From: Thermodesulfobacteriota bacterium
Lineage (GTDB): Bacteria; Desulfobacterota; UBA8473
Reading direction: 5' to 3'
Assembly: GCA_040757775.1 (NCBI GenBank)
Contig: JBFLWQ010000001.1
Coordinates: forward strand, 58,917 to 122,916
Length of the DNA: 64,000 nucleotides
Under the pieces are notes generated by a model, which did no database searches, was not told the DNA's origin, and saw nothing but the letters and a program-made list of their open reading frames with translations. Positions 8,635 through 47,306 of the stretch are shown in pieces (within the stretch, counting starts at the first letter, position 1; each line of letters opens with the position of its first letter). Position numbers and translations under genes: made by a program.

Positions 8635-8711
8635 GCCCCCGTAGCTCAGGTGGATAGAGCAAGGGATTCCTAATCCCTGTGCCGCGTGTTCGAGTCACGC
8701 CGGGGGCACCA
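8635..8711 (+). tRNA. tRNA-Arg (anticodon CCT), 77 nt with encoded CCA
   Basis: Cloverleaf read by hand: acceptor GCCCCCG/CGGGGGC, D-arm GCUC/GAGC, anticodon stem AGGGA/UCCCU with loop UUCCUAA (anticodon CCU), T-arm GCGUG-UUCGAGU-CACGC, discriminator A, then CCA. Confidence 0.85.
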
Positions 8712-8790: not shown

Positions 8791-8890
8791 AAGTCGCATA
8801 TTTTTGACAAAGTTTTGGGTCAGGATTGGGTCAAAAAAATTATGCCTTAAAACCGCCACTGTAATTGTTGAATTAACTGGAAGGAAATTT

Positions 8891-9919
8891 ATGGAGAGAA
8901 CAGTAATTTATTGTCCAAGGGACAAACAGAGAAAGTTTTTGGTGATCTGTATACAAACGTGTAAGTCTAAGTCCGGGTGCGAAAGTATAAGAAATATTTC
9001 TCAAGAAACAATCGACGGAGAGCTGGAGGACTACAAAGGAAAAGAGGAAACTGTCAATGCCGTGAGGCAGGAATGCTCTCTTGAAAAGGATGAAAATGGT
9101 ATCTGCTCTCACCTGTGGGGAATGTCGTCTTGTATTGAAAGAGTAAAGTGCTGTTGTGAGTGTGAAAAGGAATTCTGTAACTCTCGATGTAGCAACTCTG
9201 AACCGAAAAAAGCAACGGTACCTGCCGTGATGGAAAAAGGTACAGATATAGAGAGGTCTGTTTATTGCAAGGAAAAGGCAGAGGAACTTTGCAATCGGAT
9301 CGAGGATAGTTATTATGAGTTGGCAATGATCCTGCGCGAGATTGAGAAGGAACAGTATTACATGAATTGGGGATATTCAGGCTTTGTGGAGTACGTAAAG
9401 GAGTGTTTAGGTTTTAAGGAGCGAAAGGCAAGATATTTGATAGCGATTGCGGATATGTGCCAGCGGTATAATATCACGAAGGATGAAAGAATAGGAATTG
9501 AGTGGTCAAAACTTAAGGAGTTACCTGGAGTAATCAATGAGGAAAATAAAGAAGAATGGCTTGGCAAAGCCCGGGAGAGTACTACAACCAATTTACAGGA
9601 TGAGGTAAGAAAGGCACGTGGGATTAGTCCAGGTGAAATGAAGTCGTTTATTACTTTTTCCCTTGCAGAAGGGCAAAAGCTGGTGGTTGAGAGTGCGTTG
9701 GACCTGGCAGGAAAATTAACTGGATCTGAGGTAAGGTCATATCTTCTTGAGGTCATATGCCAGGAGTTTGTCGGTACCTATATGAATATGGACGAACTTG
9801 CAATTAAAGCATTTGAGAGGTCTCATGGACTACAAGAAGATGAAGTTCCCGAAACAGGGGAAAGTGGTATTAAAAGGTATAGACTACGTGAGGTTCAAAA
9901 GATGGATTCACGAGCGTGA
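8891..9919 (+). CDS. hypothetical Cys-rich protein (first gene of the phage-like region)
   Basis: The track starts at a TTG at 8804; ATG 8891 has RBS ggaaggaaa. The N-terminal half is Cys-rich (CxxC/CCCEC clusters). No integrase motifs are present. Confidence 0.4.
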   Translation: MERTVIYCPRDKQRKFLVICIQTCKSKSGCESIRNISQETIDGELEDYKGKEETVNAVRQECSLEKDENGICSHLWGMSSCIERVKCCCECEKEFCNSRCSNSEPKKATVPAVMEKGTDIERSVYCKEKAEELCNRIEDSYYELAMILREIEKEQYYMNWGYSGFVEYVKECLGFKERKARYLIAIADMCQRYNITKDERIGIEWSKLKELPGVINEENKEEWLGKARESTTTNLQDEVRKARGISPGEMKSFITFSLAEGQKLVVESALDLAGKLTGSEVRSYLLEVICQEFVGTYMNMDELAIKAFERSHGLQEDEVPETGESGIKRYRLREVQKMDSRA

Positions 9920-21088: not shown

Positions 21089-21122
21089 CCAAAGGACTTG
21101 TTGTCCTTTGGCTTTTCTGTTT
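21089..21122 (+). terminator. rho-independent terminator-like hairpin
   Basis: CCAAAGGAC-ttgtt-GTCCTTTGG (perfect 9-bp stem) followed by CTTTTCTGTTT. The track's TTG start for the portal (21108) lies inside this hairpin. Confidence 0.45.
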
Positions 21123-21137
21123 GAAAGGTACTCAGGC

Positions 21138-24100
21138 ATGTGGTTGATAGATAGAATTACTGATCTTCTGACGAAGGCCAAGTACGATCCGTCCGGAGTT
21201 GATGGTCCTGGAACTACGAGAACTGGTAATGAGCAGAACGGATGGTATTATAATCTGATAAAGCTCGAGGAGACACGAAAGGCACGATACAAAGATTATG
21301 ACACGATGGATGATGAGTTCCCGGAAATATCCTGTGTTACAGGAGACACAATAGTTCACTGTTTAGATGGAGATTTTACGATTAAGGAATTGACAGAGAA
21401 CAAGAAAGATGAAATGTTCTTGGTTTACAGTTGCGATGGGAATAGAATAGTTTTTGATGAAGCGTATGCTCCACGACTCTCAGGTAGAAAAGTAAAAGTT
21501 ATTCGCGTAAGGTACAGAAGCAACAACCGATGGACCCATGAACTACGAGTTACTGGCGACCATAAATTTATGATGAGGGACGGTAGCATGAAAATGGCTG
21601 GAAAGTTAAGGTCAGGAGATAGCCTAATGCCGTTCAACGCTCAGTATGTAAATGATAGGCGGGTCATTAAAGATTTGGATGGTAGGAAGGTCTATGCGTC
21701 CCATCTGGTATTTGAGCAATACGCCAATAGAGCAGTTGATCTTGGCAAAGTGATTCACCACATTGATGGGAACCGGAGAAACGACAATCCACTAAATTTG
21801 CATGAATTATCGCTTGAAGAACATTGCCGTAAGCATAGCATGGGGAATCAGCATACATTGGGAATGATATGGAACGATGATACTGAACGAGTGGAAAAGC
21901 ATAGAAAGCGGATGCTTGGGAATAAGCATAAAAAGGGGAAGGCCAATAGTATAGAAACACGAATGAAGATGAGGAAAGCTCATGCTGAAAGACGACTGCT
22001 AGGGCTAAAACGAAACAGAGAATATGGAAAGCCATGGAACAAGATACAAATTACGCCGGAAGATTTGGTAAATGCTGTTGAAAGAACGAATGATTATAGA
22101 GAAGCAAGCGAACTGTTAGGAATTTCAGTTCCTGTGTTTTTCAGGCGTGTGAAGGATTTTGGTTTAAGGGGAGCTGTTGATTATAATCATGTGGTAGTAG
22201 GTATCGAAGATGGAGGGTTTGAGGATGTTTATGATTTGACGACACGGCGTACTCATAAGTTTGCTGCGAATCACCTAATTATATCGAATTCGAGTATCGA
22301 TATATATTCAGACAATGCGACACAGTCGGTTGATGGAACGCATGAGTCGTTTTGGATAGAATCCGAAGACCAGAAAGTAAAGGATGTTCTGACCAGGATT
22401 AACGAGGAGACTGGACTGCAAGATTCGATTTGGTCTATTGGGCGAAATCTGGTTAAGTATGGAGATGATTTTGAGGAAATAGTATTAAACTCAAGTATGT
22501 TCGTAGTAGATATAAAAGGATTGCCCTGTGAGCAGATGTACAGGAATGAGGATGAATACGGCAGGTTGCTAGAGGATGGTGCGTTCACGCAGAGAGACGT
22601 AAGCACAAACAAGGAGCTTGCAGAGTTTAAGAGCTGGCAGATCGTCCATTTCAGAAATGTGGTGAAGAGAGGGACGAAATACGGGAGGAGTTTACTGTAT
22701 CCTGCAAGAAAGGTATTCAAACAGTTACAGATGATGGAAGACGGTATGGTGATTGCGAGGCTGACCAGGAGCAACATGAGGTACAAGTGGAAAATCGATG
22801 TCGGCAATATGTCTGCAAATGAGGCACGTACATTCCTGAGAGATGTCAAGATGGAGCTCAGAAAGAAGCGCGTTATTGACCCTGCTACGGGCAAGTTTAA
22901 ACTGACCGATAATCCATTAAAAGATGAGGAAGATTTTTTTGTGGCTGTAAGGGATGGATCTCCGGCTGACGTTGATGCCATACAAGGTTCTGCAACGCTT
23001 GGTACTATTGGTGATGTAGAGTATTTTCAGAATAAGCTGTTTTCGATGCTGAAGGTACCGAAGGCGTATCTTGGATTGGAGAGAGATGTGAATGCTAAAT
23101 GTTTGGCTGGCGATACCCCGATATGTCTTGCAAATGGGAAAGATATGCCGATTCGTGAATTAGTAAAGCTTTATAGTAATGGGCAAAGGTTTTACGTGTA
23201 TTCATGCCGTAGAGATGGTGAGATAGTAATAGCAGAAGCACATTCCCCAAGGATAACAAGAAGAAATGCCGAAATGGTAAAAGTGACGCTCGATAGTGGG
23301 GTGAGCTTCAGGTGTACACCTGACCATCCGATAATGTTGCGCTCAGGTTCTTTTTGTCAGGCGAAAGATATTAAGAATGGCACAAGCATTATGCCTTTGT
23401 ATAGAAAGATCTCCGAGAAACCTGAGAATAGTATTAGCGGATACGAGTTACATAGAAATCCACGAACGGGCCAATGGAGATATACGCATAGGCTTGTTGG
23501 AAGACATCTTCCCAGGCCGATCGGTGAAAAGCGTTGGGTCATGCACCATGTTGATTTTGATAAGAGAAATAACTCGCCAGACAACCTTGTTCTCATGACG
23601 TGGGACGATCATGTAAAGCTACACATGGCTTTTGTAGCGTTGTTGCATACCGAAGAAGTTAAGAAGCGTAGCAGAGAGGGCGTTTTGAAATCTGCAAAAT
23701 TCAAAAAAAGACTGTTGAGCATGAATAGCAGCCTTTGGAAGAGAGCGAAGTCTAGCAAGACATTGAGACGATTGTATGCTGAAGGCGTTATGAATGTAAA
23801 GGGTGTCCTAAATCCAAGATACAGAAAGGATGTCACGGTTGAAAGTATAGCGAATGCAGCTCGAGAAGCAAAATGTTCATCTGCAAAAGAGATACAAGAA
23901 AAAACTGGAATTAATTATTCGTTGTTAAGAAGACGACTTGACAAGTTGGGACTAAGTTATCAAGAGTTTGCAGATAAAGTTTTGGAAGCGGGGTATAGAA
24001 AAACTGGATGGCATCGCCCTGACTTAAGTCTTGAAAAAATAGGTGAAGCCATCGCTTCCTTCGCAACAGTAAAAGAGGCAGCAGAAAAATTAGGTGTTAA

Positions 24101-24752
24101 CCGGCCTGACCTTTACCAGATATGTAAAAGAAGAGGGACGACTGTTCAGGAATTGCGGGCATCCAACCATAAAGTAGTGAGCGTTGAACCCGACGGCGTG
24201 GATGCCGAAACGTACGACTTAACTGTAGATAACTATCATACGTTTGCAATAGGGTGTGGTATCTTTGTTCATAATAGCACCCTGACCGTACAGGATGTAC
24301 AATTCGCAAGGACTGTCCGTAGGTATCAGAAGATATTAACGAATCAGATAAGATCGATATACAATCTAGGGCTAATCTTGCAATCATTGGATCTTGCGAA
24401 GTCTCCGTATTATGTTTTCTTTCCACCTATAAATACTGTTGATGAGCTTGCTAGGTGGCAAACCGAAAAGGTAAAGGCTGAGATAGCAAAGATTTACGGG
24501 ATTGATATTAACTGCGTGTCTGAGGAATTTATTCTGTCCTATTATCTTGGACTGACTGACAATGAGATTAAGGATGTTTCAGGACAGACGAAACCGGTAC
24601 GGCAGGGCAAGGAGCAGCAGGTAGTAGAAACGATCACGACTTCCAACATCGAACCGCATGAGCTACTAGAGCTTGGAAATCTACTGGAAGCTCTGAGAGA
24701 CCTTGTTGAAATTGAACTGGAGAAGAAGGAACAAGAACGATGGGAGCATTAG
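21138..24752 (+). CDS. portal protein interrupted by two HNH-type inteins
   Basis: First ATG after the hairpin. Removing the two inteins leaves an extein of about 500 aa, typical for a portal, in the position after the terminase. Confidence 0.55.
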   Translation: MWLIDRITDLLTKAKYDPSGVDGPGTTRTGNEQNGWYYNLIKLEETRKARYKDYDTMDDEFPEISCVTGDTIVHCLDGDFTIKELTENKKDEMFLVYSCDGNRIVFDEAYAPRLSGRKVKVIRVRYRSNNRWTHELRVTGDHKFMMRDGSMKMAGKLRSGDSLMPFNAQYVNDRRVIKDLDGRKVYASHLVFEQYANRAVDLGKVIHHIDGNRRNDNPLNLHELSLEEHCRKHSMGNQHTLGMIWNDDTERVEKHRKRMLGNKHKKGKANSIETRMKMRKAHAERRLLGLKRNREYGKPWNKIQITPEDLVNAVERTNDYREASELLGISVPVFFRRVKDFGLRGAVDYNHVVVGIEDGGFEDVYDLTTRRTHKFAANHLIISNSSIDIYSDNATQSVDGTHESFWIESEDQKVKDVLTRINEETGLQDSIWSIGRNLVKYGDDFEEIVLNSSMFVVDIKGLPCEQMYRNEDEYGRLLEDGAFTQRDVSTNKELAEFKSWQIVHFRNVVKRGTKYGRSLLYPARKVFKQLQMMEDGMVIARLTRSNMRYKWKIDVGNMSANEARTFLRDVKMELRKKRVIDPATGKFKLTDNPLKDEEDFFVAVRDGSPADVDAIQGSATLGTIGDVEYFQNKLFSMLKVPKAYLGLERDVNAKCLAGDTPICLANGKDMPIRELVKLYSNGQRFYVYSCRRDGEIVIAEAHSPRITRRNAEMVKVTLDSGVSFRCTPDHPIMLRSGSFCQAKDIKNGTSIMPLYRKISEKPENSISGYELHRNPRTGQWRYTHRLVGRHLPRPIGEKRWVMHHVDFDKRNNSPDNLVLMTWDDHVKLHMAFVALLHTEEVKKRSREGVLKSAKFKKRLLSMNSSLWKRAKSSKTLRRLYAEGVMNVKGVLNPRYRKDVTVESIANAAREAKCSSAKEIQEKTGINYSLLRRRLDKLGLSYQEFADKVLEAGYRKTGWHRPDLSLEKIGEAIASFATVKEAAEKLGVNRPDLYQICKRRGTTVQELRASNHKVVSVEPDGVDAETYDLTVDNYHTFAIGCGIFVHNSTLTVQDVQFARTVRRYQKILTNQIRSIYNLGLILQSLDLAKSPYYVFFPPINTVDELARWQTEKVKAEIAKIYGIDINCVSEEFILSYYLGLTDNEIKDVSGQTKPVRQGKEQQVVETITTSNIEPHELLELGNLLEALRDLVEIELEKKEQERWEH
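21333..22289 (+). mobile_element. intein 1 (319 aa) with HNH homing-endonuclease domain
   Basis: Begins ...PEIS|CVTGDTIVHCLDG (block A); block B TGDHKF; HNH core HHIDGNRRNDNPLNLHEL...EEHCRKH; ends VYDLT...THKFAANHLIISN|S (blocks F/G, Ser+1). Confidence 0.5.
23100..24275 (+). mobile_element. intein 2 (392 aa) with HNH homing-endonuclease domain
   Basis: Begins ...NAK|CLAGDTPICLANG; HNH core HHVDFDKRNNSPDNLVLMTWDDHVKLH; ends TYDLTVDNYHTFAIGCGIFVHN|S (canonical HN + Ser+1). Confidence 0.6.
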
Positions 24753-36523: not shown

Positions 36524-36798
36524 CACGGTTCTATGGATGGACACACTCTCAGATAATGTCATTAACTCCAGGGCAGTATCGGTTTTACCTGTCTGGTATG
36601 GACAGACTTAATGCTAGTGAACGCCTTGAGGAAATTGTTGTTCATTCAATTCCATATCTTAGTTCTGGAAGTAGAGCTGGTATTGTTCAAAGGTATCGAA
36701 ATGAACTTATGAACGATCTATGCGAACCATACGAACCATGTCTCGATGAAACTGCTTTTTTAAATATAAAAAGACGACTGCCTAGAGGACGTGCATAA
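36458..36798 (+). CDS. tail assembly chaperone -1 frameshift extension (GT product, 36113..36466 joined to 36466..36798)
   Basis: Slippery A_AAA_AAA at 36460-36466 (within the A9 run 36458-36466). The -1 frame is open from the slip site through the 36556 ORF to 36798, where ATGA couples to the tape-measure start. Confidence 0.5.
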
Positions 36799-39700
36799 TG
36801 TTTGACGCTGGTAGTTTAGTTTCTAAGCTCACGCTTGATGCGACTGAATATTTCAAAAAGCTTGGTGAAGCCTTGTCCAAGTTTGAAGGACTTGGTACGT
36901 CTATCGGCAAAGAAATGGATAAAATCCAAAAGGATGGACAGATTGCAGCCGATAAGATGGCTAGCTCCTGGAATAAGGCACTGAAGGACATTGAAAAGAA
37001 TTCCGATATGTTCAAGAGCATCGGAATGAAGATAAGTGCTATCGCTGCGGCTGGTACTGCTGGACTAACAGCGACTGTTATGGCGTCGTCGAAATTCGAG
37101 GCGTCCCTTGCTAATGTGTCTACTCTGGTTAATACGAGTGAAGTCAGCATGGCAAAGCTAAAGCAAGGTATCATGGATTTGCCTCCTGAACTTGGGCGGG
37201 CAACCATGTTGAGTGAAGGCTTGTATCAGGCGTTGTCTGCTGGAGTAAAGCCTGCTGAGGCGATAGGTTTTGTCACTGCTGCGGCTAAGGCGGCAAAGGC
37301 AGGTTTGACTGATGCGTTTACCGCTGTCGATGCTGGAACAACGATCCTGAACGCGTTTGGAATGCAGACTTCCGACGCTGGCATAGCTTTTGATCAGATG
37401 TTCAAGACTGTTGAGCTTGGCAAGGTCACATTTGAAGGTTTGGCAGTAACGGTTGGAAATGTAGCACCTACGTTTGCCACTGCAAAGCTGTCCACCGAAG
37501 AGATGTTCGCCGCCATAGCGACCTTGACTGCTGGCGGTATTGACGCTGCACGTGCTACTACGTCATTGAACAGTGTAGTTTTAAATATAATCAGGCCACA
37601 GGAAAATGCTATTGAAGTTGCACGACAGTACGGGATTGATTTGAGCCTGGCTGGACTACAGGCGAAGGGGTTCAGTGGATTTTTGAAAGAGCTTCAGGAT
37701 AAAGTTGGAGGTAATACTGAGGCACTCGTTAAGATTATACCCAACATCGAAGCCTTACGAGCTATCCTGCCGTTGGTTGGAACACAGGCTAATATGTTTG
37801 GAGAAGCCCTGGACGCTATCGGAGCGAAATCAAAAGGTGCTATTGACAAAGCTTTCTTAAAACAGATGGACACAACTAAGGAGTCATTTGCTGCTCTTGG
37901 AGTTAGTGTTGAAAAGTTTGCGATTGCTATTGGAGACAAGCTTGCACCTGTCATAAGGGTTGTAACAGAGCGTGTAACGGATATGGTTAAATGGTTCAAT
38001 GACTTGAACGATGGATGGAAAACTGCCATCGGTCTCTCGGTAGCTCTTGGTACTGGACTGGCTGCTATTACTGGTCCTGCACTTCTGCTGATAGGATACC
38101 TTCCACGAATAGCGGAAGGTATTGCGATGATAGGTACTTTTATTGCTGCGCACCCGATCGGGCTGGCGATCACTGGGATTGCTGCAGCGATAGGTGCGCT
38201 TACTATTGCGTTTTTGTCATATAAAGCAGCCCTAGCCGATGTGACCCCATTTCAGGAATATTCACATAATCTTGCCGTTGTAGATAAAGAGCTAGAAAGA
38301 TTGAGGGGACGAGTTGAGACCCTAGAAAAACAACCATGGATTTTCGGACCAACGAAGGGCATGATTCAGGAGACACTGGATCGGATTAAAGAACTGGAAG
38401 AGAAAAGGCAACAGATCATACGTGACTTTGCCAAGATAGGAGACAAAGAAGAGGAGGATAGGAAGAAGGCAAAAGAGGAAAAAGAGAAGCTGGAAAAGGA
38501 GAAAAAGAGAATAGAGGAGCAAGAGGAAAGGAATAGACGAAAGCAATTAAAGTCGCAAGCAGATGATGAGGCAAGAAAGGAACGAGTGAAGCTCAACCGT
38601 GAACTAGAGTTGTCTCTTATGAACGAGAAGGAAAAAGCCATTGCCATAATGAATGAAAAGGTTGAGGCGTTCAGGAAGGCTGGTCTGGATGAGACTAAGA
38701 TTCAGGGATATATTGATCAGGAAAAGCTTGAAATTGAGCAAAAGTATACAGGGTTGACACAAAAAGAGTACGATAAGCTCGTGGAACACTGGAGGCAGGC
38801 TAATAAGTACAAGGCAGAACTGGCTGGGAAGGCCCTTGAAGAAGAACTCAGAGAGACTGATAATGCTATTAACCAGCAGGAAGCCATGTATCGTGATTTG
38901 TTCTACAAGTCAGGTCAATATGCTAAGGAATATACATACTTTAGAGAGCTTCAAATCGATATTGAAACCGATGACTTGATAGAGTCCCTGACAAAGAATG
39001 TTCGAAGCATAGAAGAAGCTAATGAAATCATCTTGCTTATAGAACAGCAAGCGGTAGAAAAGAAGAGACAACTCCATCTAGAAACCAATAAGGCAATGCT
39101 TCAGTATTCAAATGATTTTGTTATGGGGTGGAGTATAGGACTGGATGAAATGCTAGCAAAGCAATACACCTGGGGACAGGCGGGCTATGATGTGTTCAAA
39201 GCCTTTACGGATGGTGCAAAGACTATGTTCTCCAGTATGTTTATGGACTTTTTCACGAGCGATCTCAAGACGTTTGGGGATTACTGGGAGTCGTTTTGGA
39301 ACTCTATGCAAAGAAAGTTCTCGGAAATTTTGTCACAGATGCTGGTGGAATGGATGATGACGCAAGGAAGGATGCAATATGCCACAGGCGGCGGATATAC
39401 ACAGACTGGAGCAGGAGGACAGGTCGTACAGACCAGCTATGGGATGTTGTCAGGGGCAGCATTGGCTGGGATTCCTGCAGGTTCCGAGGTTGCGTTCGTG
39501 CCTCTATCCGAATTGTCTCAGGCAGAAATCACGGCGGCCGTGCAGCAGGGGGCGAACATTACCACCACATCAGAGGGTGTCCAGGGGCTTGCGGTGACAA
39601 AAGTTGCGGAGGCTGGGTTCTGGCAATACGCCGGGACGGCGGGTATTAGCTATATGGGGTCTAATCTTGTTGCTTCTCTTTTGGGAACGGAAAAGGGAAG

Positions 39701-40193
39701 TGCTGAAGACCTGGCAACAAGAGCTTTGTCAGGAGCAGCAACAGGGGCTGCTTGGGGCACATGGGTAATGCCTGGTGTAGGTACAGGCATAGGTGCAATC
39801 ATAGGAGGGATTACAGGACTGCTCGGTGGTTTGTTCCATGAGGGTGGCATCATCAAGGCTCATGGAGGGCTGAAGATAGGAAGTGCTATCTCCGATATGA
39901 TGTCATCTGTTTTTAAGCCAAGAGAAAAGCTAGTCCTTACTGAAGTTGGCGAAGGGATCCTACCTGTTCCAGTCATGGATAGACTTGGTGACATAGGTTT
40001 TGAGAGCCTACGGAGTGGGAACTTTGAGATTAAATCCGAACGTAGCTCTGTATCAGGAACTGGAAACCATTTCTATATTGATAAGTTGGTAGCGATTGAA
40101 GGTGACTACCACGTGTTTGATGATAGGTTTATTGAAAATCTGACCAGAAAGGTAAGAACTGAATTACAAAATCTTGCAGAACTGAGGCACTAA
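36798..40193 (+). CDS. tail tape-measure protein
   Basis: 1131 aa; N-terminal TP901-type region, long EK-rich coiled coil, Gly-rich hydrophobic C-terminal segments. Confidence 0.8.
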   Translation: MFDAGSLVSKLTLDATEYFKKLGEALSKFEGLGTSIGKEMDKIQKDGQIAADKMASSWNKALKDIEKNSDMFKSIGMKISAIAAAGTAGLTATVMASSKFEASLANVSTLVNTSEVSMAKLKQGIMDLPPELGRATMLSEGLYQALSAGVKPAEAIGFVTAAAKAAKAGLTDAFTAVDAGTTILNAFGMQTSDAGIAFDQMFKTVELGKVTFEGLAVTVGNVAPTFATAKLSTEEMFAAIATLTAGGIDAARATTSLNSVVLNIIRPQENAIEVARQYGIDLSLAGLQAKGFSGFLKELQDKVGGNTEALVKIIPNIEALRAILPLVGTQANMFGEALDAIGAKSKGAIDKAFLKQMDTTKESFAALGVSVEKFAIAIGDKLAPVIRVVTERVTDMVKWFNDLNDGWKTAIGLSVALGTGLAAITGPALLLIGYLPRIAEGIAMIGTFIAAHPIGLAITGIAAAIGALTIAFLSYKAALADVTPFQEYSHNLAVVDKELERLRGRVETLEKQPWIFGPTKGMIQETLDRIKELEEKRQQIIRDFAKIGDKEEEDRKKAKEEKEKLEKEKKRIEEQEERNRRKQLKSQADDEARKERVKLNRELELSLMNEKEKAIAIMNEKVEAFRKAGLDETKIQGYIDQEKLEIEQKYTGLTQKEYDKLVEHWRQANKYKAELAGKALEEELRETDNAINQQEAMYRDLFYKSGQYAKEYTYFRELQIDIETDDLIESLTKNVRSIEEANEIILLIEQQAVEKKRQLHLETNKAMLQYSNDFVMGWSIGLDEMLAKQYTWGQAGYDVFKAFTDGAKTMFSSMFMDFFTSDLKTFGDYWESFWNSMQRKFSEILSQMLVEWMMTQGRMQYATGGGYTQTGAGGQVVQTSYGMLSGAALAGIPAGSEVAFVPLSELSQAEITAAVQQGANITTTSEGVQGLAVTKVAEAGFWQYAGTAGISYMGSNLVASLLGTEKGSAEDLATRALSGAATGAAWGTWVMPGVGTGIGAIIGGITGLLGGLFHEGGIIKAHGGLKIGSAISDMMSSVFKPREKLVLTEVGEGILPVPVMDRLGDIGFESLRSGNFEIKSERSSVSGTGNHFYIDKLVAIEGDYHVFDDRFIENLTRKVRTELQNLAELRH

Positions 40194-41790: not shown

Positions 41791-43839
41791 ATGAGCATCA
41801 ATTTGCAAGAAACGTTTAAGCTAGGTCATGCGTGGCGGTACAGTAATCCCCGCACTCCGACTGATTATTTGCCTTTGGTTTACGGATACATGAAAGGTGG
41901 GAGCAAAGGAATATGGAATTGTCCATGTATTGATACTGTGAATTTCTACTACCTCATCTCTGATAGCACGATACTGAGTGCAGGAGATGGGAATAGCTTT
42001 ACGGTTTACGACAAGGATGGAAATGTTATTGACCCTGCAGATTACACCATTGTTGACGACCACACCGATGAGAATGGTAAGCATATAGCAATCATTGATT
42101 TTGTTGCAGACCAGGCTACGAAAGAGCCTATATCAATTAGATGTAAGGGTAAGAATAGTAGTTCATCGCTCATAGAGAATCCGATTGAGGTCATAGAAGA
42201 TTTTGTTGTTAATGTTGTTGGTGGTGCATCCTCAGATTTCGATGCCTTTGCTTTGCAGAAGGCAAAGGATATCTGTAGCGGATACGAATGTGCTGGGTTA
42301 ATAAATGGAGACAGGTCTATAGGTACTACGCTGTCCGAGATTCTCTATTCTTTTAATGGTGAGTGGTGGAAGAATAACGTTGGTAAAATAGTAATATTGA
42401 TTAATACCATCAACCAGGTGTTTGACCATAAGGGCGAAGTATTCGAGAAGTATGTAAGTAATCTGGTGGCTACACAAGATGAGAAAAATCTCTGCAACCA
42501 GGCAGAAGTTCTCTATGCCTATAACTACAGGCTGAATACGTATGAGGAAGGAGATGATGGTAACTCCACTAAGGATCAGTTATCGCAGAGTATACACGGA
42601 GCCAAGATTAAGACGTGTGAATTTAAATGGTGCAGGGACTTAAGTACGGCAAATGCTGTTCAGTCGGTTATAGTTGATAGGTTTAAAGACTCTGTATGGA
42701 TGATCAGTTTTGATGATGCTACGCTGAGGAATGTTCATTTTGAGACAGGAGACTTTGTTCTGTTTAGCCACTCTGAGCTTTATGATAAGACACGAAGTCC
42801 GTTTCAGAATAGAATTGTTCAGGTGATGTCGAAAGTTGTTAGTCTCAATGAGGGGTTCGTCTCGTTTGAGGTTGTTGATAAGAATGTATCTTATCACAGC
42901 TTTGAGGAGACGTTTGAAGACGTTGTTAATGTTTCGGAACTAATCTCAAAGACTTTTGGCAAGGGTGCGTTTGAGCAGATTGGCATATCAGAGCTTATTG
43001 CGATGGCGGTTACTAAGGTAGCGGCCGATGGAGTATCTATAAGTGAGGCAGTAGCTAAGGATGTCCATAAGATAGGAAGAAATGTTGTTACCTCTCTTGG
43101 TTCTATTACTTGTAACCTATCCCTAGTCAATGGGGTTGCCTTTGTAACCAATCCGTCAGTGGACTTAACTCCTTATATTGGAAAGTTACTTACCTTGAAG
43201 GCAGGAGGTAAAACTCTAACGGGCTGGATCAAGGCGGCAGGGACTGGGGAAACATATGGTTCAGAAACACTTTCAAATCCAGAATTCATTGATGCGAGTG
43301 CATGGAATACTGTATTGACTGGATGGACATTAGGGGGAGGAGTTGCCACATATGCACCCGGAGACGTGTATGCACATATATATCAGGCTACATCTCCATC
43401 TGTGGGCAGTCTGATGAGAGTAGTTGTTATCGCTAATTCAGTTTCTGCAGGTTGGTTCATTCTGGATTGGCCGGTTTCGTATTTTTATAATACGGCAGGC
43501 ACTAAAATTATTTATGGGGTTGCTACGGGTGGGTTAGATAATAAACTGATAGCATATTATAGTTTGATAGCGGAATTTGAGAGTTATTCAGTTAAACAAG
43601 TTTTAACCCCTTCGCCTACAGGTGTTACGATAGTATCTACCAAGGGTGGGTCAGTATATAACTGGGCATCAAATGACGGTATAGACCCTAATGCAGTAGC
43701 TTTTGATGCTTATATTGGAGATGAAGCAGAGAAGGTTTGGCTCTCTGAGCAGGCATGGAAAAACTGGTTCAAGTATGATGGGGTGTATGACCATAATGGA
43801 GCAATCTATTACGGAAAGGATTATGGGGTGCTGGTATGA
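41791..43839 (+). CDS. tail-associated lysin/baseplate (Tal-like) or fibre protein
   Basis: 682 aa; largest baseplate-region gene. Confidence 0.4.
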   Translation: MSINLQETFKLGHAWRYSNPRTPTDYLPLVYGYMKGGSKGIWNCPCIDTVNFYYLISDSTILSAGDGNSFTVYDKDGNVIDPADYTIVDDHTDENGKHIAIIDFVADQATKEPISIRCKGKNSSSSLIENPIEVIEDFVVNVVGGASSDFDAFALQKAKDICSGYECAGLINGDRSIGTTLSEILYSFNGEWWKNNVGKIVILINTINQVFDHKGEVFEKYVSNLVATQDEKNLCNQAEVLYAYNYRLNTYEEGDDGNSTKDQLSQSIHGAKIKTCEFKWCRDLSTANAVQSVIVDRFKDSVWMISFDDATLRNVHFETGDFVLFSHSELYDKTRSPFQNRIVQVMSKVVSLNEGFVSFEVVDKNVSYHSFEETFEDVVNVSELISKTFGKGAFEQIGISELIAMAVTKVAADGVSISEAVAKDVHKIGRNVVTSLGSITCNLSLVNGVAFVTNPSVDLTPYIGKLLTLKAGGKTLTGWIKAAGTGETYGSETLSNPEFIDASAWNTVLTGWTLGGGVATYAPGDVYAHIYQATSPSVGSLMRVVVIANSVSAGWFILDWPVSYFYNTAGTKIIYGVATGGLDNKLIAYYSLIAEFESYSVKQVLTPSPTGVTIVSTKGGSVYNWASNDGIDPNAVAFDAYIGDEAEKVWLSEQAWKNWFKYDGVYDHNGAIYYGKDYGVLV

Positions 43840-44282
43840 AAAGTACGATAAAGATCAAGGGTAAGGTAAAGATAGAATTGTTTGATAAAGATGGCAAGCT
43901 GAAGGATGTCAGGGATATCGCTGGCAATCTAGTTGTGGATGATGGACTTAGTCATATAGCTGACCAGATGAGTGACCAGGGGGAGGCGCAGATGTCGCAC
44001 ATGGCGATTGGAGTAGGAACGACTGCCCCTGATCCTAGCGATACGGCTCTTGAATCAGAACTCGATAGGAATGCACTAACGTCTGTAACCCAAACAGATA
44101 ATGAAGTCGAGTATATCGGTGATTGGGCTGCTGGTGACGGAACCGGTGCAATAACCGAAGCTGGAATTTTCAACGATCCGGCTGCAGGAACAATGCTTGC
44201 CAGAATAACTTTTGCCGTAATCAACAAAGCTGCCAATGATCAGCTCAGGATAACCTGGACGCATACATATAGTGCAGCATAG
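43836..44282 (+). CDS. tail fibre-associated protein
   Basis: ATGA overlap; 148 aa. Confidence 0.3.
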   Translation: MKSTIKIKGKVKIELFDKDGKLKDVRDIAGNLVVDDGLSHIADQMSDQGEAQMSHMAIGVGTTAPDPSDTALESELDRNALTSVTQTDNEVEYIGDWAAGDGTGAITEAGIFNDPAAGTMLARITFAVINKAANDQLRITWTHTYSAA

Positions 44283-44293
44283 GAGAATAGAAT

Positions 44294-45160
44294 ATGGAAA
44301 CTCCATCTTGGATACAATATACAGAATCAGTGGTAGGAGAGAATCATCCCTCACTGGCTGATGTTGCCAACAGGCCGGCAAAGACGATACACACAAATCA
44401 CTTGAGTTTGCTTCTTGGGCTAAGAATCAAGCATTCCATCCTGAAATATGTCGATGATGATGAATTTAAAGTTTCGTTTCCTTTCACACCACCTGGTGAA
44501 TCGGCTTGGTCAGATGTCACCCTGAAGCTTGCCCTTGTTGCAGGTGGTGGACAACTTAAGGCAGGTGATGCAGTCACAGCCCATGAGTTTTATGTCGTCT
44601 ATATTGCTAACACCGTAACCGAACAGCCCATTGCTGGTGATTTTGTTATACGAGAGGGGCAGACGACTACCGAATCAGGTTACGCAAAGATTGGAGTAAT
44701 CTACAACACCCAAGTAACAAATGCAGTTATCAGAGCGTTTGACATGGCTGAGCACAATGTATATATGTGGCGGGATGGAAAAGATCTTAGACCATTGGAT
44801 ACTGGTGCTCAAACGAGCTGGACAGATGTTGATCTTGATCCCGCTGTAGGGTCAACACGTTATGCTCCATCAACGGCTCGGCAAGCAATCATGTTTGCTG
44901 TTTTGGTAATTAGAGTTACTGATTATCAATATGGAATAGCATGGGCTCGAAAAGATGGTGGGGCTGGTAATGGAAGATATGTAGCCTTTGCTCAGCAAAA
45001 TAGTAATGGAGATATAGCTAGGGATGCTAATGAGTTTAGAATTGAATTGGTTAATGGAGTTTTTGAGTATAAGCTTTCAGGAGATGCAGCAACTTTATTA
45101 ACAGTTGATATATATTGCCACGGTTTTGTGGATTCAGACAGCGTAAGCGTAAGTGATTAG
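44294..45160 (+). CDS. tail fibre / receptor-binding candidate
   Basis: 288 aa; RBS aggaga. Confidence 0.3.
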   Translation: METPSWIQYTESVVGENHPSLADVANRPAKTIHTNHLSLLLGLRIKHSILKYVDDDEFKVSFPFTPPGESAWSDVTLKLALVAGGGQLKAGDAVTAHEFYVVYIANTVTEQPIAGDFVIREGQTTTESGYAKIGVIYNTQVTNAVIRAFDMAEHNVYMWRDGKDLRPLDTGAQTSWTDVDLDPAVGSTRYAPSTARQAIMFAVLVIRVTDYQYGIAWARKDGGAGNGRYVAFAQQNSNGDIARDANEFRIELVNGVFEYKLSGDAATLLTVDIYCHGFVDSDSVSVSD

Positions 45161-45397: not shown

Positions 45398-45799
45398 GTG
45401 ATACGAATTATGAAAACAAAGATAGTTAGACTTGAAGAAAGTACTCAGGGAGCCTTGGGGGTATTGCTAATTGATGATGTTATCTTCTGTTTTACATTAG
45501 AACCAGACAGAAATGAAAAAGGAAAGTTATATATCCCACAAGGAGAATATCATTGTAAGAGATTTCACGGTACAAAGTGGAAGAATACCTTTGAGATAGT
45601 AGTACCTGGTCATACAGCAGTTTTATTCCATTCAGGAAATACCGAAGCCGATACTCTGGGTTGTATTCTTCTTGGTGCCACTACTGGTAAACTAAAGGGG
45701 AATAGGGCTGTTTTAAATAGTGGAGAGACGTTTAAAAACTTCTTAGACAGAACCAAAGATGTTAATGAGTTTCCTCTTATTATTGAAGATAGCTATTAA
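45398..45799 (+). CDS. L,D-transpeptidase-fold (YkuD-like) protein, candidate cell-wall hydrolase
   Basis: HSGNTEADTLGCILLG resembles the His...(S/T)xGC(I/V) catalytic signature of YkuD domains. Weak, motif-level only. Confidence 0.3.
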   Translation: MIRIMKTKIVRLEESTQGALGVLLIDDVIFCFTLEPDRNEKGKLYIPQGEYHCKRFHGTKWKNTFEIVVPGHTAVLFHSGNTEADTLGCILLGATTGKLKGNRAVLNSGETFKNFLDRTKDVNEFPLIIEDSY

Positions 45800-45967
45800 A
45801 CATTGGGTAAGCTATGTATGTGAGGGGCTGGAAGATTAGAAGTGCATGGTATTGGAGCGAGTTAAAGATTGGTATTGTCATTGATATTAGTCGCAACCGA
45901 ATAGAAATCGAACTCCAGCCTTTTCCTTGTTGGTGTATTTCAGTATGGAAAAGACGGAAATCACATA

Positions 45968-46336
45968 ATGGAGGTTGAGCCAATGGAAGGATTTGGTCGT
46001 CATTTTACTTTTGATGGAGTAATCAAGGATATAAGTTTGATTGAACCAGAAAGGGTAAGAGATTTTCTTAATAAATGCCCTGATGAAATAGAGATGACCA
46101 AGATTACACTTCCATCGGTGTATGAAATAGGCGGTAAAGTTATTGGGATGGTTATTATAGCTGAAAGCCATATAAGTTTTCATGGAAACCTGAACACAGG
46201 ATTAATAAATATTGATGTATTTTCCTGCATGTTTTTCAGTTTTAAAACAGCCTTTGATACAGCAGAAAAATATTTCCCTTGCAACAGGGTTAAAACCAAT
46301 TTTATTGAAAGAGGTTTAGAATTTGTAAGAACCTAG
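45968..46336 (+). CDS. S-adenosylmethionine decarboxylase-like pyruvoyl enzyme (small SpeH/SpeD class 1a type)
   Basis: 122 aa; ...GKVIGMVIIAESHISFHGNLNTGLINIDVFSC aligns with the AdoMetDC proenzyme core (ESH self-cleavage site ... DVFTCG). Confidence 0.55.
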   Translation: MEVEPMEGFGRHFTFDGVIKDISLIEPERVRDFLNKCPDEIEMTKITLPSVYEIGGKVIGMVIIAESHISFHGNLNTGLINIDVFSCMFFSFKTAFDTAEKYFPCNRVKTNFIERGLEFVRT

Positions 46337-46349
46337 AAAGGAGGACAAT

Positions 46350-46901
46350 GTGGATTGGTCAGATGTAGTCGATGTCATAAAGAAGGTAGCTCCAACAGCA
46401 GAGGGATTATTGTCTGCTTTTGGAGGTCCACCAGGGATGATAGCTGCGGGGGCGATTAAGGCAGCAGCGATGGCTTTTGGATTATCCGAGACCGCTAAGC
46501 CAGATGAGTTAGTTTCAGCAATAGCTAATGATCCTCAAGCCGCTTTAAAACTTGCGCTAGCCGATCAGGATTTCAAGCTGAAAATGAGAGAGCAGGATAT
46601 TGAAGAGATAAAGACTAAGCTTGTGGATGTTCAAAATGCTCGTAATATGAATGTTGAAGGAGTTAAAGCGACTGGAAAAAGAGATGTGGAAGATAAAGTT
46701 TTTGACTGGTTCCTCATTATTGGTTTCTTTACAATACTTGGACTTATGCTTTGGTTAAAGCCGCCTGAAAGTACCAATCTAGGATTAATGATAGGGGCGG
46801 TTATTATGGCATTCGGACAAGTAGTCAATTTTAGGAAGGGAACAACAGTAAATAGTTCGAGAAAAACAGAATTGCTTGCGAAAGCGGAACCAATATTTTA
46901 A
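46350..46901 (+). CDS. membrane protein (holin-like candidate)
   Basis: GTG start after RBS aaggagg; two C-terminal TM helices (FDWFLIIGFFTILGLMLWL; LGLMIGAVIMAFG). Confidence 0.35.
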   Translation: MDWSDVVDVIKKVAPTAEGLLSAFGGPPGMIAAGAIKAAAMAFGLSETAKPDELVSAIANDPQAALKLALADQDFKLKMREQDIEEIKTKLVDVQNARNMNVEGVKATGKRDVEDKVFDWFLIIGFFTILGLMLWLKPPESTNLGLMIGAVIMAFGQVVNFRKGTTVNSSRKTELLAKAEPIF

Positions 46902-47277: not shown

Positions 47278-47306
47278 TTGACACCAGTTTATCTGTATGC
47301 TAGAAT
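47278..47306 (+). promoter_or_regulatory. sigma70-like promoter P1 (TTGACA-17-TAGAAT) with conserved leader
   Basis: TTGACA at 47278-47283, 17-nt spacer, TAGAAT at 47301-47306; downstream leader GAAATCATAAAACATAAATCACAAAGG, then RBS + ATG 47346. Confidence 0.55.

Follow-up and report, generated by a model that had tools for sequence, protein, structure and literature searches.

The window analysed here, a 64-kb stretch of contig JBFLWQ010000001.1 (64,000 nucleotides) from a Thermodesulfobacteriota bacterium, carries within a prophage a small gene whose product resembles S-adenosylmethionine (AdoMet) decarboxylase (AdoMetDC). The analysis confirmed that this open reading frame (ORF) encodes an AdoMet_dc-family protein of class 1b with the SpeD fold. 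The gene is real and, judged from its sequence, is a divergent member of the phage SpeD-family decarboxylases. It belongs to a phage clade that forms a distinct lineage in our comparisons, nearest to the L-arginine decarboxylases called SpeDA but without demonstrable membership of that group. We tentatively favour a functional class 1b SpeD-fold prophage enzyme that would convert L-arginine to agmatine for a host agmatinase, a reading that we hold to be plausible while stopping short of calling it probable.

A predicted class 1b SpeD-fold proenzyme

An earlier note on this DNA had proposed a small, phage-borne, pyruvoyl-type proenzyme of the AdoMetDC family, and the profile match, the fold and the conservation of catalytic residues all support that proposal. 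The Pfam AdoMet_dc model named in the note (PF02675) scored 53.4 bits, above its gathering cutoff of 25 (E = 3.7e-14), in a match that spans positions 14-107 of the 107-position profile, and phrog_3125, 'S-adenosylmethionine decarboxylase', matched with E = 3.5e-11. Sequence matches among solved structures were the prokaryotic AdoMetDCs 2iii, 1vr7 and 1tlu. An AlphaFold2 model built on an alignment of 22 homologues had a predicted local distance difference test score (pLDDT) of 91.7 and a predicted template modelling score (pTM) of 0.84, and it superposed on T. maritima AdoMetDC (1vr7/1tlu) with a template modelling score (TM-score) of 0.84-0.85 and a root-mean-square deviation of 1.6-1.8 Å. 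In Foldseek the best matches were 1vr7, 1tlu, 1tmi and 2iii at TM-scores of 0.81-0.85, with other solved folds far behind, and the SpeD-fold matches found in the BFVD viral fold search were all distant (at most 23% identity). The class 1a label used in the earlier note was wrong: proteins of about 120 residues constitute class 1b, and 1a denotes the larger enzymes of the E. coli type (PMC9992855). The gene and its key positions are as follows.

45983..46336 (+): most likely coding sequence (117 aa and a TAG stop) for the proenzyme of a SpeD-fold class 1b pyruvoyl decarboxylase
45968..45982 (+): upstream in-frame extension, read from the sequence, with a probable Shine-Dalgarno GGAGG (45971-45975); homologues lack these five residues
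46013..46018 (+): Asp11-Gly12 of the N-terminal strand; the canonical AdoMetDC motif at this place is E-x-[YF]-x-C, as in T. maritima (E11-F12-Y13)
46163..46168 (+): Glu61-Ser62, predicted autocatalytic cleavage site; Ser62 (codon 46166-46168) corresponds to T. maritima Ser63
46181..46183 (+): His67, corresponding to T. maritima His68 (processing and catalysis); invariant in the 22 homologues, at the Ser+5 spacing of T. maritima
46184..46195 (+): remodelled loop Gly68-Asn69-Leu70-Asn71, in place of the T-[WYF]-P-[ED] found in canonical AdoMetDCs and in the SpeDA-type relatives
46226..46228 (+): Cys82, corresponding to T. maritima Cys83 (decarboxylation and processing); invariant, aligned to FTC of T. 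maritima

Both motifs singled out in the earlier note, AESHISFH and DVFSC, are present, and in the alignment with the T. maritima enzyme AE-S-HISF-H...DVFS-C falls on SE-S-HLTI-H...DLFT-C. Ser63, His68 and Cys83 of T. maritima are needed for self-processing and catalysis (PMC10407285). Residues A60, E61, S62 and H63 are invariant in the 22-homologue alignment, including the serine predicted to form the pyruvoyl group, whose conservation the note had left to be checked. Additionally, D11 is invariant and G12 nearly so across the phage clade and its SpeDA-type relatives. By homology with the T. maritima enzyme, the 117-aa proenzyme would undergo serinolysis at Glu61|Ser62 to give a beta chain of 61 residues (M1-E61) and an alpha chain of 56 residues (pyruvoyl-62 to T117). 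Ser62 would become the N-terminal pyruvoyl of the alpha chain, with His67 and Cys82 assisting in processing and protonation.

The longest ORF (45968..46336, plus strand) encodes 122 aa and exists as the earlier note described it; its start was imprecise. Translation most likely begins at the second ATG (45983), giving 117 aa, because GGAGG at 45971-45975 lies 7 nt 5' of that codon, because the N-terminus MEGFG is common to all eight close homologues, and because NCBI protein MEW6613955.1, which is 100% identical to the window protein, has 117 aa. In pairwise comparisons with five homologues on other contigs the ratio of nonsynonymous to synonymous substitution rates (dN/dS) was 0.10-0.23 wherever dS was unsaturated, and therefore the reading frame is under purifying selection. 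An overlapping minus-strand ORF (45887..46183, 98 aa) was rejected, since the profile match and the purifying selection belong to the plus-strand frame. The gene has a GC content of 33.1%, with 26% at third codon positions (GC3), and the phage region as a whole has 42.9%.

Sequence signatures and nearest relatives

Class 1b homologues fall into three groups: bona fide AdoMetDC, SpeDA and SpeDC (PMC9992855, PMC10407285). SpeDA is an L-arginine decarboxylase that arose several times, and SpeDC is an L-ornithine decarboxylase (ODC) of single origin (PMC9992855, PMC10407285). The proline that follows the catalytic histidine is invariant in bona fide AdoMetDC and unconserved in SpeDA (PMC10407285). 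The phage clade matches none of the three published sequence signatures.

Compared with bona fide class 1b AdoMetDCs (T. maritima TM0655, PDB 1tlu/1vr7; cyanophage S-PM2 SpeD), the window protein shares the fold, the size, the E|S cleavage site, the catalytic His and Cys, and the length of the pre-cleavage loop. In contrast, sequence identity is about 25%, and H-G-N-L-N, D-G and FSCM stand where those enzymes have H-T-W-P-E, E-F-Y and FTCG. The replacement in the loop is general: true AdoMetDCs carry H-T-[WY]-P-E, and the phage clade carries H-G-[DNE]-x-[NQY]. Asn71 occupies the place of T. maritima Glu72 and human Glu247, and the position is Asn, Gln or Tyr across the phage clade. Human Glu247 is among the AdoMet-binding residues of the human enzyme (PMC3686867); we infer that the loop glutamate is its equivalent, as both lie four residues after the catalytic histidine (human His243), so that this assignment of an AdoMet-binding residue rests on the human enzyme and on motif spacing. 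The N-terminal strand is altered as well, reading H-F-T-F-D-G against the canonical H-L-x-x-E-[FL]-[YF]-x-C. The equivalog model TIGR03330 was the best NCBIfam match, yet its score of 45.4 bits lies below the cutoff of 75.65. No homologue of SpeE, SpeB or SpeY was found in the 64-kb window, nor was AguA/B, the other agmatine-using enzyme considered. Because the loop and N-terminal strand of true AdoMetDCs are replaced, TIGR03330 scores below its cutoff and speE is absent from the window, the enzyme is unlikely to be a bona fide AdoMetDC, and the name 'S-adenosylmethionine decarboxylase' under which MEW6613955.1 stands in NCBI is probably a functional misannotation.

A true AdoMetDC, supplying decarboxylated AdoMet to the host spermidine synthase as the SpeD proteins of cyanophages and a Thermus phage do, would account for the AdoMet_dc match, for TIGR03330 being the best match and for the intact catalytic residues. 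The pre-cleavage loop, as long as that of T. maritima and without the insertion of the SpeDA-type group, agrees with such an enzyme, and AdoMetDC is by far the commonest polyamine enzyme of phages (PMC9992855). Furthermore, the Sinorhizobium phage phiN3 protein is divergent in sequence and nevertheless a true AdoMetDC. We nonetheless consider this explanation unlikely. The invariant proline, the Glu247 equivalent and the N-terminal E-x-[YF]-x-C are all lost, and a profile of agmatinase-linked proteins, described below, scores the window protein above any bona fide enzyme. The earlier note had left open whether the gene manipulates host polyamines or is a neofunctionalised decarboxylase; the second branch is the better supported, through the TIGR03330 score, the lost Pro-Glu, the lack of SpeE in the window and the proximity to SpeDA.

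The close relatives of the window protein are few. A word-indexed search of 5.8 billion proteins returned a close clade of eight clusters at 61-100% identity, with the next sequences at 45% or less, and an exhaustive HMMER scan of 1.84 billion representatives returned one at E <= 1e-30, the next best being at most 46% identical. The close clade amounts to one 50%-identity cluster. A scan of IMG/VR with the close-clade alignment gave 246 pattern matches, none of them a confirmed relative.

Beyond the clade, the 80 best relatives were collected from GTDB species genomes (loci L024-L103; 33-46% identity). They include Thermodesulfobacteriota (Desulfobacca, Syntrophobacterales, Desulfacinum, Caldimicrobium and Thermodesulfobacterium) along with Dehalococcoidia and other Chloroflexota, Sericytochromatia, Obscuribacterales, Woesearchaeota and Omnitrophota; Sericytochromatia and Woesearchaeota are also named in the SpeDA literature. 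An agmatinase-family gene lies directly downstream on the same strand in 64 of the 80 loci, a deoxyhypusine-synthase-like speY occurs in six, and speE was found within 4 kb in none. This agmatinase-linked arrangement is the basis on which SpeDA was found and validated, and it has also been described for Capsulimonas and Sericytochromatia. The pair of SpeD homologue and agmatinase is very widespread in genomes of Dehalococcoidia and Thermodesulfobacteriota. The SpeDA-speB route is common within the host's own phylum. All 80 relatives have H-T-[FY], and about 70 have a proline at position +3. Judged from these sequences, the published rule that separates SpeDA from AdoMetDC by loss of the proline may fail for a large agmatinase-linked group.

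A hidden Markov model (HMM) built from 64 agmatinase-linked proteins gave the following scores, in a comparison that, like the tree below, took in no experimentally characterised SpeDA sequence directly; cluster accessions gave no tie between proteins P0032 or P0036 and the characterised Marinimicrobia SpeDA (PIS27863).

Other members of the agmatinase-linked group: 149-218 bits
Microcystis phage MaAM05 speH_1: 156 bits
Phage clade: 82-102 bits (window protein 100.7)
Bona fide SpeDs (T. maritima, S-PM2, P2559S, phiN3, MaAM05 speH_2): 46-64 bits
Pelagiphage-type HTVC104P: 42 bits, the lowest

In a neighbour-joining tree the phage clade is monophyletic with 100% bootstrap support and is basal to the SpeDA-type group, away from the bona fide and ODC-like references. 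With SpeDA of the Marinimicrobia / Vampirovibrio / Capsulimonas / Woesearchaeota clade (Li et al. 2023, PMC10407285) the window protein shares the fold, A-E-S-H-I-S-x-H, D-[VI]-F-S-C, the N-terminal H-[LF]-x-x-D-G strand and the P-x-x-I-x-M-T-K-I segment, and the SpeDA-type profile is its highest-scoring one. It differs from these enzymes in having only 33-46% identity to the SpeDA-type relatives and in lacking both a PEDWG-type insertion and H-T-F-(P). The gene is also phage-borne, lies in a lysis cassette and has neither speB nor speY next to it. In the phage clade H-G-x takes the place of the H-T-F of the SpeDA group, and there is no insertion before G-[VI]-S-G. The shorter pre-cleavage loop was considered as a deletion in the phage clade, and this was rejected: the T. 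maritima alignment indicates that its length, equal to that of the T. maritima AdoMetDC, is ancestral, and that the PEDWG-type insertion belongs to the SpeDA-type group.

L-arginine is the likely substrate under the reading that we favour, because the nearest relatives are agmatinase-linked SpeDA enzymes; it is a best guess for a phage clade that lies outside the SpeDA group. Several observations weigh against it. The phage clade scores about 50 bits under the lowest true SpeDA-type member, and the split that joins the two has 56% neighbour-joining bootstrap support. The clade lacks the PEDWG-type insertion and the invariant H-T-F, and there is no adjacent agmatinase gene in the 64-kb window. 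The missing proline is a weak guide here, as most agmatinase-linked relatives retain it. To our knowledge, no structure of SpeDA exists that identifies the arginine-binding residues. Motif-based calls can also fail, as with phiN3, whose protein is a bona fide AdoMetDC within an ODC-like clade (PMC9992855).

If the substrate is L-arginine, the pyruvoyl carbonyl would form a Schiff base with its alpha-amino group, after which CO2 would leave to give agmatine. A host agmatinase would then convert agmatine to putrescine, and the polyamine supply would rise late in infection.

The best match among 50,697 phage genomes was speH_1 of Microcystis phage MaAM05 (WMU93428.1), with 37% identity over 97% of the protein. 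It is likewise phage-encoded, has no proline after the catalytic histidine (H-S-F-I-D) and shares the N-terminal and MTKI motifs. In contrast to the solitary and more divergent window gene, speH_1 obtains a regular SpeDA-type score and lies in a cluster of this jumbo cyanophage (MW495066.1; locus L013, 2486-5264) that comprises a canonical speH_2, the proline-less speH_1, speE and speB (agmatinase). On this sequence evidence speH_1 is probably an arginine decarboxylase, and if so the cluster would provide a complete arginine-to-spermidine route in one phage. The 2023 survey does not mention Microcystis and records more than one polyamine enzyme in just a single phage (PMC9992855).

A few other short proteins also have remodelled loops (H-A-S-L-N-T, H-A-N-T-G-N), two of them on phage-like contigs. 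The phage-like contigs of two more distant short variants, P0228 and P0076, each carry a gene for a 506-aa TnpB/OrfB_IS605 (Cas12f-like) protein a few kb upstream (L104, 2018-3538; L105, 2208-3728). The related short proteins P0070 and P0229 read A-E-S-H-I-S-[IV]-L, lacking the second catalytic histidine, and may be non-processing variants.

Lysis-cassette position and alternative substrates

In each of the six phage contexts compared, the SpeD-like gene follows an endolysin gene at a distance of 0-3 small genes, and the endolysins beside it belong to at least three unrelated types.

DUF5675: window
PF00959 lysozyme: L020, L021/L022
phrog_894, unrelated: L001, L005, L023

The decarboxylase was the only gene common to the window and homologue contigs L001-L008 (tblastn, E <= 1e-3). 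In L021/L022 the gene right after the SpeD-like gene is homologous to the phrog_1544 protein gene that follows it in the window (28% identity, E ~1e-20). A 181-aa ORF downstream in L005 was considered as a further phrog_1544 counterpart and rejected, having no similarity and an odd composition; it is probably spurious. In L020 a phosphoribosyltransferase-family gene (993-1562; PF00156, 189 aa) stands between the lysozyme and SpeD-like genes, and in both L020 and L001 the SpeD-like gene is immediately preceded by a conserved acidic ORF of 47 aa (77% identity). The simplest reading of these contexts is that the SpeD-like gene is an accessory cassette carried in the final stretch of the late (lysis) transcription unit. 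The immediate neighbours in the window are these.

45398..45799 (+): upstream neighbour, DUF5675 protein of 133 aa (PF18925, 92.5 bits; phrog_1501; H-x9-T-L-G-C motif)
46350..46901 (+): downstream neighbour, phrog_1544 protein of 183 aa (E = 1.2e-23)

A recent proposal based on structure makes DUF5675 a C82-like lysin domain (bioRxiv 10.64898/2026.04.11.717860), and on this basis the upstream neighbour is a candidate C82-like (YkuD-type) endolysin; a PDB sequence search with it gave no matches. The phrog_1544 protein has a Gly-rich N-terminus, a charged centre and two C-terminal hydrophobic segments (transmembrane-like windows from about 116-121 and 143), an architecture by which alone it may be called holin-like. 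Hence the earlier note reasonably placed the gene between a putative lysin and a membrane protein. Neither a promoter-like nor a terminator-like site was found separating the DUF5675, SpeD-like and phrog_1544 genes. Because of this and of its position at the end of the late operon, the SpeD-like gene would probably be expressed late, together with its lysis neighbours.

The recurrent position bears on a further explanation, namely that the protein is a decarboxylase with an undescribed substrate or a role tied to lysis, for example acting on another basic or envelope amino acid, on lysis timing or on envelope polyamines. The loop after the catalytic histidine is unlike that of every characterised group, the clade is rare, the endolysin-adjacent position recurs with unrelated endolysins, and a protein family with two transmembrane segments follows the gene in two diverged contexts. 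However, accessory genes are commonly inserted at the ends of late operons and in lysis cassettes, so that position by itself is weak evidence, and the GC content of the gene, low at 33% against 43%, agrees with a mobile accessory gene. Such a role also has no precedent or mechanistic support, and the SpeDA-type similarity is the strongest signal in the data. This explanation, too, seems unlikely. In a narrower form, the window protein would be a phage-specific SpeD-fold offshoot whose remodelled loop accepts a substrate other than AdoMet, arginine or ornithine, or which makes an amine tied to host lysis. We regard that form as rather unlikely, although a coupling to lysis, if true, would explain why the gene travels with the lysis cassettes of unrelated endolysins.

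A pyruvoyl L-ornithine decarboxylase resembling SpeDC would yield putrescine directly, as several homologues from uncultured freshwater phages do. ODC-active phage SpeD homologues of 117-122 aa are documented (PMC9992855), and a stand-alone gene with no agmatine-processing partner suits a one-step route to putrescine. The window protein resembles SpeDC and the arginine decarboxylase of the pelagiphage HTVC201P type (PMC9992855, PMC10407285) in being a phage-encoded SpeD homologue of this size whose AdoMetDC activity would be lost, as it is in those proteins. SpeDC is diagnosed by four residues, Gln, Thr, Phe and Tyr (PMC10407285), which we read from the pattern Q-L-I-E-T-S-x-x-S-G-H-F...Y-x-D-x-F-S-C in the fusion-protein alignment of the supplement to PMC10407285. 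None of the four is present in the window protein, which has V..A-E-S for Q..E-T-S, H-G for H-F and N-I-D for Y-x-D. Its clade is also separate from the ODC-like HTVC104P and phiN3 in the neighbour-joining tree, and the SpeDA-type profile that scores the phage clade high scores HTVC104P lowest. Moreover, ODC activity is reported to have a single origin (PMC10407285). An ornithine decarboxylase is thus quite improbable here. Degraded SpeD domains incapable of self-cleavage exist in fusion proteins (PMC10407285) and P0070 lacks its second histidine, but a non-catalytic remnant or a regulatory 'prozyme'-like subunit is scarcely credible for a protein with a confidently predicted fold, strong purifying selection and clade-wide invariance of Ser62, His67, Cys82, AESH and FSC.

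Phage SpeD homologues, including neofunctionalised ones, are already established (PMC9992855). The polyamine enzymes of phages have lately been recognised as a class of auxiliary metabolic genes, and repeated changes of substrate, among AdoMet, arginine and ornithine, have been demonstrated for the SpeD fold. What the present gene adds is a temperate phage of an anaerobic Thermodesulfobacteriota host, a rare lineage outside the three characterised signatures, linkage to the lysis cassette and a probable AdoMetDC misannotation. Should the arginine decarboxylase that we favour be correct, it would add one more independent example of a phage that enhances the initial step by which its host makes putrescine. 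A new substrate would instead mean a further specificity for a very small self-processing enzyme scaffold.

Prophage setting

The first 8.5 kb of the window (1-8.5 kb) hold bacterial genes, encoding a PFK fusion, UbiA, an aminotransferase IV, a PabB/TrpE-like protein, a GATase and a GGDEF protein. A tRNA gene follows them.

8635-8711: tRNA-Arg(CCT), immediately bordering the phage-like region on its left

Starting at about 8.8 kb and continuing to at least 62 kb, every long ORF lies on the plus strand and is phage-like. Among these ORFs are genes for a portal, a prohead protease, a major head protein, a tape measure protein (36798-40193) and tail-fibre-like proteins (43836-45160), with an ATPase/primase-like protein, a sliding-clamp-like protein and a DNA methyltransferase further downstream. 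The succession of bacterial genes, tRNA-Arg and phage genes therefore identifies the element as a prophage adjoining a tRNA gene. No repeat of the tRNA-Arg 3' end of at least 12 nt (an attachment site) was found elsewhere in the window, and the right boundary of the prophage may lie outside it.

Just after the tRNA gene, a 371-aa ORF (8804-9919) matched phrog_17202 (unknown function) only, and Pfam integrase models gave no match to it. A 1214-aa ORF (21108-24752) combines a portal match (residues ~440-675) with several HNH-endonuclease matches (~166-266 and ~768-1009) and may be a fused or invaded portal gene. Past the phrog_1544 gene, an AT-rich gap (GC 31%) contains a near-consensus sigma-70-type promoter-like site at 47278-47306 (TTGACA-17-TAGAAT with TG, 11/12). 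It lies 5' of the small ORFs that run from 47346 on, and it may start the next transcription unit.

The GC content of the DUF5675 gene is 36%. GC3 of the DUF5675 and SpeD-like genes is about 26-27%, against 44-55% in the structural genes, a difference in composition which suggests that the genes of the lysis region were acquired independently of the structural module.

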